In this document: piece after piece, positions 5,997 through 11,170 of the stretch
How positions within the stretch are numbered: position 1 is the first letter of the stretch
Layout of the letters: every line of letters starts with the position of its first letter
Notes under the pieces: generated by a model
Seen by the model: only the letters and a program-made list of their open reading frames with translations
The model's database searches: none
What the model was told of the DNA's origin: nothing
Translations under genes and position numbers: made by a program
Assembly (NCBI GenBank): GCA_051652765.1
Contig: JBOFUV010000029.1
Span: 1 to 41,596 of the forward strand
Origin: Microcoleaceae cyanobacterium
Lineage (GTDB): Bacteria; Cyanobacteriota; Cyanobacteriia; Cyanobacteriales; Microcoleaceae
Reading direction: 5' to 3'
Length of the DNA stretch: 41,596 nucleotides

Positions 5997-7022
5997 TCAA
6001 ACGCTAGAAGAGTCAACCGCTGACGAATTAGGATAAAACTGGTTGGCCCATCGTAGGCTTGACCGAATTGGCCCATCTTCCTCAAACAAGATCGGGTGAT
6101 GTAAATCCTGGCGATGTTCTAGGATCGGGAGATCCTGTTCAAAAGTATTAGCCACGTCACGCTTGAGCAGGGCTGTCAACACCCAACCCAAGGGTTGAGG
6201 CAGCAACTTTTTGACACTGAAGAAAATTTCAATATCGAGATGGTCTTCATCTATGGGGGTTCCGGTAAAAATGGTCAAGAGTTCCAACTTGATCCGGCCC
6301 TGAGTCCAGTAATAACTCACATCATAGGCTGGCCCATAATAAATTGTCGTTACACCGCCATCCTCGTCCACGAACTTACCTGCCGCTAACGACGAAAGAT
6401 TATACTTTTGGGACATGCGGTGGGTCAGCACTGGGCCATCAATTTCAATCCCCAAACTTTTTGCCGAACTAAATGTCTGACTATGGAGGTTGGATAAATG
6501 AGAGACATCTACACTATTTTCCATATAGTGTCTCAACGTGGTTCGCACTCGCCAACGCCGTACCGAGCTTAACGGTGTCCATTTTTGAGTCAACAATTCA
6601 GGAATTCCCGGAATTTGCCAATTCGGGAGATCAGCTTGATGGTGGTAATACATCAAAATCAGACCATTCACCTCTTGAACAGGCCAAGACTGAATTCGAA
6701 CTTGCGGCAGTTGTTTATCTGGATAGGGAACATGAACGCACTGGCCTGCTCCATTCCACCGCCAACCATGATAGGGACACCGAATCGTATCGGCCTGAAT
6801 CGTACTGCCATAACCCAGGTGAGCCCCAAGATGCGGACAATAGGCATCCAGTAACCGAGGCGTGCCATCCTCTGCCCGAAACAAGACAAAATCTCGACCA
6901 AAGTAATGCAGAGGCAATACTTTCTTCGGGGGCAACTCCCAACCGGTGGCAATTCGGAACCAACTATTGGGAAAGCCCAGACGAGAGTGCTGATTTTTGG
7001 TCTGATCGATGTTCTGAACCAT
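5997..7022 (-). CDS. Rieske [2Fe-2S] non-heme iron oxygenase (KshA/Neverland-like architecture)
   Basis: CPHLGAHL...CPYHGW Rieske motif; ENSVDVSHLSNLH and FEQD mononuclear-iron ligands. Confidence 0.88.
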   Translation of the reverse strand: MVQNIDQTKNQHSRLGFPNSWFRIATGWELPPKKVLPLHYFGRDFVLFRAEDGTPRLLDAYCPHLGAHLGYGSTIQADTIRCPYHGWRWNGAGQCVHVPYPDKQLPQVRIQSWPVQEVNGLILMYYHHQADLPNWQIPGIPELLTQKWTPLSSVRRWRVRTTLRHYMENSVDVSHLSNLHSQTFSSAKSLGIEIDGPVLTHRMSQKYNLSSLAAGKFVDEDGGVTTIYYGPAYDVSYYWTQGRIKLELLTIFTGTPIDEDHLDIEIFFSVKKLLPQPLGWVLTALLKRDVANTFEQDLPILEHRQDLHHPILFEEDGPIRSSLRWANQFYPNSSAVDSSSV

Positions 7023-7081
7023 AGTATTTCTTATTTTAGGAGTTGTATTGTCTTTCGGATCAGGCTCTGGTATCTCCGGTC

Positions 7082-7147
7082 AGAACCCTCAGTTAGAAGC
7101 CAAGGTTCAGAATGCTCACCTAGAACCCTCAGTTAGAACCCTCAGTT
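7082..7147. repeat. 13-bp direct repeat x3 (two in tandem)
   Basis: AGAACCCTCAGTT at 7082, 7122 and 7135. Confidence 0.8.
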
Positions 7148-7232
7148 AGAAAACTTTAGGGTGATCATAAGCCAAGATAATGAATCTGCCATGGTTATTT
7201 TGATGGGTTGAGGAAAAACTAGACCGATCCGT

Positions 7233-9104: not shown

Positions 9105-9368
9105 GTGGAATGATTATCCGCAACAACGATGCCTTGGAACCCAATCGCAGCGTGAGACTGCTGGTTACCCTTTCTAGTTCTATAGCTCTCATGGCAAAAT
9201 AACCATCATGTCTTTCCCTATTTCATGGTTAGACCAGACAAACTGCAAGCAGTCGGGAGTTCACGATTGGGCGCGTACCGCCGAGGGATATTTCGGCCAA
9301 CGACCCATCCCCTGTGACCCCAAAAATCGAGTGGTGCTAAAGTTTTTAGCGTGTTGGAGGAGTGAATC

Positions 9369-9845
9369 ATGCAACTATTAAATCAGTCGTTAAACGGTAA
9401 AGAGGCCCCTAGGCCAATCATTGTAGGCTATGAACAGCAATCTTCTGTAGACTCCCTCGCGTTCCCTCAAACGGTGGAATCGATTCGGAGTTGGTTGATC
9501 AGTCAGCTTGCTGCACGGCTCGGATTTCAGCCCAGCGAAATTGATATTCATGAAAATTTTGGCAACTATGGCTTGAATTCAATTGAAGCGGTGAATCTTT
9601 CAGGAGATCTGGAAAGTATTTTGGGGCGGAGGTTACCGCCAACGATTCTGTGGGACTATCCCACGATTCAAACCCTAGCGGAGTATCTAGCGGAAGACAC
9701 CTCAAAAGATACAGGAATGATCGTTAGTCGTTCTTCCATTCCTCCCGAAAAGGCTGAACAGCTTCTGACACGGCTTGATCAGCTTTCTGATGCGGAGGTT
9801 GACACTCTCTTAAAGTCATTATTATTTGAAGAGGAAAACGATTAA
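9369..9845 (+). CDS. PKS-type acyl carrier protein with C-terminal helical extension
   Basis: IRSWL...[12 protein letters not shown] (Ppant Ser)...[14 protein letters not shown]. Stop overlaps the next start (TAATG). Confidence 0.88.
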
Positions 9846-11170
9846 TGTTAAACCTACCGACCGCTACAGAACAGATTGCCCATCTCTCTCCCCAAGAAAA
9901 GCGATTGCTCCTTGCAGATTTACTTCGTCAGCGGGCTGATTCCAAAACCACTCCGGAAATTCCTCCAGAGCATTACCGATTTGATCTCTATCCAGAATAC
10001 CGCAAACTCAAACAACAGCAACAGGAAATTGCAGCTCTAAAACTGGGAAATCCCTTTTTTCTTCCCCAAGAGGGAATTAGCAGTAACGTTACCCGAGTGA
10101 GGGGTGAAGAGCTGATTAATTTTGCAACTTACAACTACTTAGGCATGTCAGGTGACCCGGTTGTGTCTCAAGCCGCAAAAGATGCCATCGATCGCTACGG
10201 GACTTCGGTATCTGCCAGTCGCCTTGTCTCTGGGGAAAAACCGTTACACCGAGAGCTGGAGCAAACGATTGCTGACTTCATCGGGACAGAAGACTGTATT
10301 GTGTTTGTCGGTGGCCATGCAACAAATGTTACCACCGTCAGTCACCTGTTTGGGCAAAATGACCTAATTGTGCATGACTCCCTCAGCCATAACAGTTTGC
10401 TTCAGGGCTGTCTGTTGTCGGGTGCAACAGCCGTCGCCTTTCCCCATAATGATTGGCAAGCCGTGGATCGAATTCTCCGGGATCGTCGCCATCGCTACAG
10501 ACGGGTTTTGATCATTATTGAAGGCGTTTATAGTACGGATGGCGATATTCCGAACTTACCCGAGTTTATTCAGATCAAGCAGCGTCACAAAGCCTTTTTG
10601 ATGGTAGATGAGGCCCATTCGATTGGGGTGCTGGGTCAAGGGGGACGGGGTATTAGTGAACATTTTGGCGTGGATGCCACGGACGTTGATCTGTGGATGG
10701 GAACCTTGAGTAAATCCTTTGCGAGTTGTGGCGGCTACATTGCTGGATGTCGGGCAGTGGTGGAATATTTGAAGTACACAGCTCCAGGATTTGTCTTTAG
10801 TGTGGGCATTTCCCCACCCAATGCAGCTTCTGTTTTGGCCGCAATTCAGGTTCTCAAAGCTGAACCCGAGCGAGTTGCTCGGCTCCATGAACGGGCTCGG
10901 TTGTTCTTGGAACTGACTCAGGCAAAAGGACTCAACACGGGAACAAGCAAGGACTCTCCGGTGATTCCGATTGTTGTCGGAGATTCCCTGAAGTCCATTC
11001 AACTGTCTCAGAGCTTATTCCGACGGGGGATCAACGTCCCCTTTATGATTTATCCCTCCGTGCCTCATAATGGCGCTCGTTTGCGCTTCTTCATCACCTG
11101 CAACCACACCGAACAACAGATTCGGTATGCGGTTGATGTTCTGACCGAGGAGGTGGCTCAGTTGTCGTAA
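9845..11170 (+). CDS. PLP-dependent alpha-oxoamine synthase (AONS/SPT family, RkpG/WcbT-like)
   Basis: [37 protein letters not shown] (PLP Lys), ARLRFF; N-terminal YRFDLYPEY...NPFF extension. Confidence 0.88.

Follow-up and report, generated by a model that had tools for sequence, protein, structure and literature searches.

We analysed a stretch of 41,596 nucleotides (the window) from a Microcoleaceae cyanobacterium (contig JBOFUV010000029.1 of assembly GCA_051652765.1), in which positions 5997..11170 hold four genes, for a Rieske oxygenase, a fatty acyl-AMP ligase (FAAL1), an acyl carrier protein (ACP), as well as a pyridoxal phosphate (PLP) alpha-oxoamine synthase (AOS). We found that this four-gene set is not self-contained and is the core of a larger co-inherited set in filamentous cyanobacteria, and the four genes probably start the synthesis of a sphingolipid-like membrane lipid in this larger set. 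Judged from sequence comparison, the product is likely a sugar-bearing, ceramide-like membrane lipid made without the known bacterial ceramide synthase (bCerS), and the set is apparently an undescribed, co-inherited variant of sphingolipid synthesis in cyanobacteria that is built from individually known enzyme families.

The four genes are real and intact. The window corresponds to contig C29 in a genome of 5.04 Mb with a marker completeness of 99.97% (C, L and G numbers denote contigs, loci and genomes), and its features are as follows.

5997-7022, minus strand: Rieske non-heme iron oxygenase of the KshA type, 341 aa (Pfam Rieske and KshA_C)
7023..7325, no strand: gap between the divergent genes, holding short repeats of 13 nt and a single sigma-70-like site at 7233-7261
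7326-9104, plus strand: FAAL1, fatty acyl-AMP ligase and predicted ACP loader, 592 aa
9369-9845, plus strand: stand-alone ACP of the polyketide synthase (PKS) type, Ser71, 158 aa (Pfam PP-binding, E 1.4e-14)
9735..9842, plus strand: C-terminal tail of the ACP, residues 123-158, predicted docking element, conserved in split ACPs
9845-11170, plus strand: PLP alpha-oxoamine synthase (AOS) of the RkpG/SgaB-type clade, 441 aa, predicted non-canonical serine palmitoyltransferase (SPT)
9863..9940, plus strand: N-terminal helical head of the AOS, residues 7-32, predicted to dock with the tail of the ACP

The initial annotation had described a FAAL, a stand-alone ACP and a coupled AOS with a divergent Rieske gene, and all four open reading frames (ORFs) were uninterrupted at that place. 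The ACP stop and the AOS start share one base (TAATG), while FAAL1 and the ACP gene are separated by 264 nt, so only ACP and AOS are coupled. The Rieske ligands (C62/H64/C82/H85; D172-H175-H180 plus D297), the P-loop and catalytic Lys motif of FAAL1, the catalytic residues of the AOS (H182, D255, H258, K290, R414) and Ser71 of the ACP (Ser invariant in 17/17 aligned ACPs) were all intact. No ketosynthase (KS), acyltransferase (AT) or bio genes were seen among the 32 window ORFs scanned against Pfam, as the initial annotation had said, and its scheme, in which a FAAL loads an ACP and the AOS carries out the condensation, is supported. Two free-standing ACPs were found in the genome, the other one adjoining a FabF-like gene on C131, and an Sfp-type phosphopantetheinyl transferase (PPTase) is encoded by an incomplete ORF where a contig ends.

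The larger set was seen in a sample of 41 genomes, this one and 40 relatives, which are kin, so no p-value is given. An AOS of the window clade was found in 22/41 genomes, including one partial match at a contig end, and a BioF-type match was found in all 41. A short-chain dehydrogenase/reductase (SDR) resembling 3-ketodihydrosphingosine (KDS) reductase was present in 20/22 AOS-positive and 0/19 AOS-negative genomes, a second FAAL (FAAL2, at least 64% identity) in 19/22 and 0/19 (one partial), and a GT4 glycosyltransferase in 18/22 and 0/19. An OlsC-like hydroxylase (E < 1e-79) was present in 19/22 AOS-positive genomes and 1/19 AOS-negative ones, with three more AOS-negative genomes at weaker E. 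In this genome the partner genes are spread over C71, C82, C99, C108 and C4, and those located on other contigs of the same genome include the following.

C108:5549-6424: SDR
C71:91255-93108: FAAL2
C71:93234-94112: OlsC-like hydroxylase
C99:769-2010: GT4
C82:11733-13424: B12 radical SAM enzyme

The radical SAM enzyme and a major facilitator superfamily (MFS) transporter are in the cluster in relatives and on other contigs here. The cluster of the initial annotation is real but makes up only part of the set, with the co-inherited SDR, FAAL2, hydroxylase and GT4 genes on other contigs. As a separate observation, the GT4 gene is divergently paired with the true bioF gene (G000:C99:769-3338), and it also lies beside bioF in G001 and G002.

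Relatives bring most of these genes together. A single run in G005 holds the radical SAM enzyme, AOS, ACP, FAAL1, Rieske enzyme, two hydroxylases, FAAL2, GT4 and MFS transporter, that is, all but the SDR. Loci of Lyngbya, Limnospira and Planktothrix have the order FAAL2-hydroxylase-FAAL1-ACP-AOS-radical SAM, or most of it, and a Scytonema locus (L039:3299-11161) reads FAAL-desaturase-ACP-CMAS-AOS-Rieske-SDR, with a DesA-type desaturase and a cyclopropane-synthase-type methyltransferase (CMAS). The named loci and the loci of the genome sample may partly be the same assemblies, so gene order and co-occurrence are not independent lines of evidence. In a phylum sample of 401 genomes, the clade AOS was found in 26 and the SDR in 22, with 17 in common, and in four of the other five SDR genomes the SDR lies directly behind a different AOS fusion. 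Relatives also occur in records of Trichodesmium, Okeania, Moorena, Planktothrix, Limnospira and Lyngbya.

We surveyed the best 80 of 439 matched AOS loci, 79 of which yielded an AOS ORF. FAAL was beside or fused to the AOS in 54/80 loci, and judged by length the AOS ORFs comprised 24 free ones, 22 as long as an ACP-AOS protein, 22 as long as a FAAL-ACP-AOS protein, and 11 PKS-AOS fusions. With FAAL at 54/80 loci and 44/79 AOSs in ACP-AOS-size or FAAL-ACP-AOS-size fusions, the grouping is not due to chance. The SDR lay beside the AOS in 13/80 loci. All 17 split pairs had a conserved acidic helical tail on the free ACP and a conserved basic head on the free AOS, and both were missing in 10/10 aligned ACP-AOS fusions. 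Hidden Markov models (HMMs) of tail and head, built solely from split pairs, matched no fusion protein; the tail HMM also matched the C-termini of 13 larger upstream partners, including PKSs and FAAL-ACP didomains, and the head HMM matched 13 further free AOSs. In the AlphaFold model the head forms two helices with a local pLDDT of 73-76 (66.7 for the whole model). When the PDB was searched with the ACP profile, the matches lay in ACP cores, and the tail had no separate match. From the alignments and HMMs, tail and head look like a docking pair. Two loci with broken ligase genes were also noticed: FAAL1 is split into two ORFs (333 and 278 aa) in G002 (locus L115, G002:C60:13155-14925), and FAAL2 into two ORFs (503 and 179 aa) at approximately L004:3200-5309, each by a frameshift or an assembly error.

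The AOS scored below all NCBIfam AOS cut-offs, with bioF as the top-scoring model. A phylogeny, which the initial annotation had suggested, was made from 59 rows picked from the assembled loci (quick IQ-TREE run with SH-aLRT support and no bootstrap). In it the AOS falls into a clade of 48 rows (SH-aLRT 100), which also contains the PKS-partner AOSs from S. meliloti (L083) and from a Pseudomonas plasmid (L081) and is separate from E. coli SPT, BioF, Kbl and Agrobacterium HemA, and a second tree with 30 rows repeated the grouping. The AOS is 55% identical to the L081 protein and 48% to the RkpG-type protein of L083, with only 29-35% to the SPT, BioF, Kbl and HemA references (31% to E. coli SPT); among the matches listed, its closest named relatives are Oscillatoriales/Microcoleaceae records with 82-87% identity. 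H182, D255, H258, T287, K290 and R414 are invariant in 48/48 clade rows, and the Ser at position 125 is kept, as in SPT and BioF. PDB matches reached E 1e-68 for bacterial SPT and E 4e-25 for CqsA, and the AlphaFold monomer had a mean pLDDT of 66.7, poor around the active site.

The best-studied relative is PfSgaB of Pseudomonas fluorescens MYb115, which according to PMC12134224 is a proven serine-specific SPT that condenses acyl-CoA with serine almost exclusively; the KDSR-like SDR SgaC is proposed there for the step after it, and free sphinganines are among the PfSgaAB products. PfSgaB itself was outside both trees, where L081 and L083 stood in. By eye, printed PfSgaB and the window AOS have an identical 17-residue stretch and the active-site motifs in common, and PfSgaB appears to belong to the same clade. 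We predict that the window AOS is a non-canonical SPT of the RkpG/SgaB type, with serine favoured as the amino acid used. In the clade we also noticed a 1,600-aa Streptomyces plasmid protein (L082:8299-13122) that ends in an AOS of this clade and adjoins an MMPL transporter.

Known AOS functions were tried one by one. Canonical SPT was rejected, with 324, 303 and 240 bits against NCBIfam cut-offs of 640, 500 and 670 and a position apart from E. coli SPT in both trees. CqsA, the CAI-1 synthase, was rejected with 180 bits against 428 on NF005526, so the CAI-1-like product once considered scores poorly. A second BioF for biotin synthesis would explain why bioF is the top NCBIfam model and why relatives are named 8-amino-7-oxononanoate synthase in some databases. 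However, the score on TIGR00858 (354.8) is below the cut-off of 426.45, a separate AOS gene on C99 passes it (446.6), the window AOS is 33% identical to that gene, and its clade is separate, which makes this explanation extremely improbable, in keeping with the initial view that the enzyme is something other than BioF.

The partner enzymes bear on the fate of the condensation product. The best PDB match of the SDR was the 3-ketodihydrosphingosine reductase TSC10 (8JAT, E 7e-29; next 1e-22), and the SDR is 39% identical to the L083 SDR. A TSC10 structure was also used to assign SgaC (PMC12134224). Because this TSC10-matching reductase tracks with the AOS, the aminoketone that the initial annotation had placed at the end of the condensation route is likely an intermediate, while its sphingoid-like character stands. 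We are fairly confident that the route would yield a long-chain amino alcohol in reduced form. Among the models, OlsC scored best on the partner hydroxylase (271 bits, below the cut-off of 450), followed by LpxO; in L015, L244 and L235 its place beside or near FAAL2 is taken by a membrane fatty-acid hydroxylase (PF04116). Head-group genes vary, with GT4 in most loci; GT4 enzymes give alpha anomers. In L245 (G307) this core is accompanied by genes for LicD, Stealth, GT4 and inositol-1-phosphate synthase, a gene content that suggests an inositol-phosphate head group. In genus g49 (3 genomes read), the same module of SDR, FAAL2 and GT4 comes after a FAAL-ACP-AOS fusion. The AOS part of this fusion clusters with E. 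coli SPT in the tree (support 92), and its top-scoring model is an SPT model. The clade AOS itself adjoins a YghO/bCerS homolog in 5/80 loci (Planctomycetes, deltaproteobacteria), two of which also have a CerR homolog. The SDR, the hydroxylases, the head-group genes, the g49 arrangement and the bCerS neighbours together suggest that a sphingoid backbone carries both a head group and a second acyl chain, and for an N-acylated glycolipid as the end product we see about even chances. The fusion with its canonical-SPT-like AOS, followed by SDR, FAAL2 and GT4, makes a compact set in L240-L242 (G188, G149 and G342), and a flippase-like gene comes after this module in L240.

The two ligases differ at the pocket gate. 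NCBIfam FAAL models head the list for FAAL1, all below cut-off, its PDB matches are FAALs, and it is 36% identical to E. coli B AasR. Proline fills each of its four positions that correspond to the pocket gate of EcFAAL (T83/P107/P226/T252); in EcFAAL, bulky residues at the T83 position block ACP loading (PMC8460268). The FAAL2 proteins form a separate clade with support 98. All of its 21 rows are too short to include an ACP, and 21/21 show an insertion of two residues, with the T83 position of the gate occupied by Tyr, Phe or Trp. From the gate insertion, the separate single-domain clade and the lack of a spare ACP we propose that FAAL2 passes acyl-AMP to the base amine; this role as an amide-forming enzyme is tentative. 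Slightly more tentative is the broader reading that filamentous cyanobacteria make hydroxylated glycosphingolipids by a route of their own, in which an ACP-less FAAL would be an ATP-dependent ceramide synthase. If true, a FAAL ceramide synthase would add a third type of solution to the CerS of eukaryotes and the bCerS of bacteria.

The search for bCerS used definitions of bCerS and CerR from PMC11334938, PMC9386255 and the E. coli B locus. This genome gave no bCerS match with E. coli YghO (tblastn, E 1e-3), with 5 distant homologs or with a cyanobacterial homolog, and only 2/22 AOS-positive genomes had a bCerS homolog. A CerR query gave general epimerase matches in this genome with 23-29% identity (no reciprocal test). 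Elsewhere in cyanobacteria, L227-L234 (G040, G039, G031, G038, G035, G027, G025 and G029) form a second, unrelated candidate ceramide cluster, in which a divergent AOS adjoins a bCerS-like GNAT gene in 8/8 loci, a CerR-like gene in 5/8 and a different Rieske gene in 4/8; seven of these eight genomes are without the window AOS clade.

It may be instead that both FAALs load the same ACP to give free or O-glycosylated bases (e.g. 4-hydroxy), with N-acylation absent or done by another enzyme. This overlaps our preferred explanation and differs only in the role of FAAL2. The genome has one dedicated ACP, free sphinganines are among the PfSgaAB products, trihydroxy bases are annotated in Arthrospira lipids, and FAAL2 keeps most of the pocket prolines. 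On the other hand, FAAL1 of g49 is already fused to ACP and AOS, yet FAAL2 stands separate between SDR and GT4, and the insertion at the ACP-arm pocket runs through the whole FAAL2 clade. We consider this alternative somewhat unlikely.

In the sphingolipid route that we prefer, FAAL1 is predicted to load a fatty acid onto the ACP, and the AOS would form a 3-keto sphingoid base by condensing the acyl-ACP with an amino acid, of which serine is the likeliest. Of the proposed steps, we are most confident in a hand-over from ACP to AOS through the tail and head docking pair. Next, in falling order of confidence, come reduction of the 3-keto base by the SDR to a sphinganine-type amino alcohol, glycosylation by GT4, 2-hydroxylation of an acyl chain by the OlsC-like enzyme, and N-acylation by FAAL2 itself, which may use acyl-AMP and replace bCerS. 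We are least confident that the Rieske enzyme oxidises the lipid further and that the B12 radical SAM enzyme adds a C-methyl group.

Several results weigh against this reading. Among the 22 AOS-positive genomes, 19 belong to one family, which means that they are kin and not independent; within that family, the SDR, FAAL2, hydroxylase and GT4 were each found in 17-18/19 AOS-positive and 0/6 AOS-negative genomes. The link is looser phylum-wide, where the SDR is in 17/26 AOS-positive genomes, and the SDR genome G208 has no extra AOS. The phyletic profile of the radical SAM enzyme was dropped as support, since the family is in 40/41 genomes and is uninformative. The window subclade has T231 (usually M) and P399-F400 (clade majority Q-P), changes which may alter the substrate, so we only infer serine use. 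In most FAAL2 rows, prolines remain at three of the four pocket positions, and we know of no tested precedent in the FAAL family for acyl-AMP transfer to a sphingoid base amine. A strict exclusion between FAAL2 and bCerS was rejected, as G014 has both; a locus of this genome (L178:4948-8153) has hydroxylase, bCerS-like and CerR-like genes with no AOS in the 11 kb read, and the clade AOS lies elsewhere in the genome. Mooreaside A, a cerebroside and the single NMR structure available for a producer genus, is a beta-glucoside with a non-hydroxy C25 chain, and this fits neither a 2-hydroxylase nor a GT4. Finally, clade membership does not fix the product, because the same AOS clade also ends PKS and mixed lines with nonribosomal peptide synthetases (NRPS-PKS): 11/79 loci are PKS-AOS fusions, and the AOSs of L075 and L076 come after NRPS/PKS genes.

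A rival explanation is that the set makes a small secondary metabolite for export and not for use as a membrane lipid. It would be an oxidised lipid of the amino-ketone or amino-alcohol type, derived from an amino acid such as Gly or Ala. In its favour, the clade terminates PKS/NRPS lines in other cyanobacteria, the active-site changes are specific to the window subclade, the G005 cluster contains an MFS transporter, the AOS is patchy over the phylum (26/401), and the tailoring varies by locus (desaturase, CMAS-type methyltransferase, acyl-CoA dehydrogenase, FAD enzyme). But the AOS is kept in 19/25 family genomes even where the genes are scattered, AOS Ser125 is kept as in SPT and BioF, and the partners are lipid enzymes, namely a KDSR-like SDR, hydroxylases resembling OlsC or FA2H, GT4, products of flippase-like genes and, in L245, LicD with inositol-phosphate synthase, so that we consider a secondary metabolite unlikely.

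The best PDB match of the Rieske enzyme was KshA (E 2e-35), a 3-ketosteroid 9-alpha-hydroxylase, with which it has the cluster ligands, the mononuclear iron triad and the KshA_C domain in common. Its orthologs (at least 61% identity) were found in 13/41 genomes, all AOS-positive (13/22 against 0/19 AOS-negative), which bears out the link to the pathway first suggested in the initial annotation. In the phylum sample orthologs occurred in 4/401 genomes, again all AOS-positive, with distant matches of 40% and 34% in two AOS-negative genomes. The ortholog group is tight, with about 33 clusters at 54% identity or more and then a drop to 44%, and its named members are almost all cyanobacterial. The gene is within the cluster in G005 and G018 and co-oriented between AOS and SDR in L039. 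Since the orthologs occur solely with the AOS, and three times in different relative positions, the Rieske enzyme appears to be an accessory oxidation step of the pathway, and it is predicted to hydroxylate or desaturate the lipid chain. No pyrrole-forming partner genes of the prodiginine type were seen in the window by Pfam scan (the rest of the genome was not searched). Another contig of this genome carries a co-oriented gene run with three Rieske-type ORFs (G000:C21:13068-22746) unrelated to this ortholog group.

Upstream of the locus, wza-like and wzc-like polysaccharide export genes (window 1969-5942) converge on the Rieske gene. The lipid could be an anchor for a capsule or sheath polysaccharide, as proposed for rkp-type loci and linked to these neighbours. 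RkpG-type relatives do lie in capsule loci, and flippase-like genes are found in g49 and L246. However, clustering of the neighbours gave a wzc-like gene in only 1/80 loci, so the adjacency is not conserved, and LTA-synthase (RkpI-like) had no match in the genome. We regard the anchor explanation as very unlikely.

Compared with known systems, the set belongs neither to the SgaAB system (no PKS) nor to the Spt-bCerS-CerR system (no bCerS). PfSgaA/SgaB/SgaC (PMC12134224) and the S. meliloti Rkp-type locus have an AOS of the same clade (by the proxies L081 and L083, and by eye for PfSgaB) and a KDSR-like SDR partner. Here, in contrast, there is no iterative type I PKS and the chain would come ready-made from a FAAL with a free ACP, the genes for FAAL2, hydroxylase, Rieske enzyme and GT4 are added, and capsule export and LTA-synthase-like genes are not part of the cyanobacterial set. 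The genes of the L083 locus we take to be RkpA/RkpG/RkpH of Sinorhizobium meliloti. The AasR-AcpR-Spt systems of Caulobacter, E. coli B and Sphingomonas (PMC9386255; locus L135) have the same step-one logic of a ligase, a dedicated ACP and an AOS, together with the ACP/AOS overlap and a ligase 36% identical to FAAL1, whereas the AOS here is of another clade (31% to E. coli SPT) and the ACP is PKS-type with a docking-like tail and no match to the AcpR query. The closest precedent is PfSgaB/RkpG and not the alphaproteobacterial SPT named in the initial annotation. Unlike in Spt-bCerS-CerR, reduction is predicted to come before acylation; the best SDR match, TSC10, implies the eukaryote-type TSC10/KDSR order of condensation, reduction and acylation, here with an ACP-bound acyl donor and a single-gene AOS. 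The partner hydroxylase is closest to the OlsC ornithine-lipid 2-hydroxylase and LpxO, below the OlsC cut-off.

In PMC8895605, two ceramides are reported, from Scytonema julianum and Moorea producens, without genes, and the one genetic study found no sphingolipids in Nostoc punctiforme, which has a single AOS. The initial annotation, whose author was not aware of such lipids as established in cyanobacteria, is to be amended by these two reports. In mooreaside A (NMR structure), a C17 base is joined to a non-hydroxy acyl chain of 25 carbons and to beta-glucose. It shows that a genus carrying this gene set has yielded a cerebroside, but its details do not match the predicted tailoring, and we weighed it lightly. 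Equally lightly weighed are inositol-phosphoceramides with t18:0 and t19:0 bases in Arthrospira, annotated by LC-MS only (PMC11051859). The literature searched, with subscription papers mostly outside it, gave no account of this gene set and no characterised cluster matching it. The supplements of PMC12134224 had no cyanobacterial genus name in the 12 of 20 files searched, and a list of 6,101 homologous clusters may be in the rest.

The gene set names genera expected to make sphingolipids and the enzymes involved. These include bloom-forming and nitrogen-fixing genera and food spirulina, so the set bears on membrane biology and on the source assignment of environmental sphingolipids. It would also widen the newly proven SgaB-type SPT clade to FAAL/ACP-fed systems, and it offers a candidate new ceramide synthase and a small predicted docking pair joining many acyl donors to one AOS.

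A promoter and terminator scan of the locus stayed at chance level, and the 8 promoter-like sites in 7023..7325, against 5.4 +/- 2.6 in shuffles, are likewise at chance level and not evidence of function. Tandem repeats of 13 nt with two different units lie at window 7082-7154, in the gap between the Rieske and FAAL genes, and at 11192-11269, just past the AOS gene. The genome also has two large PKS-like ORFs (G000:C133:2513-7576 and C1:151-6732), one of them with a C-terminal PPTase domain.

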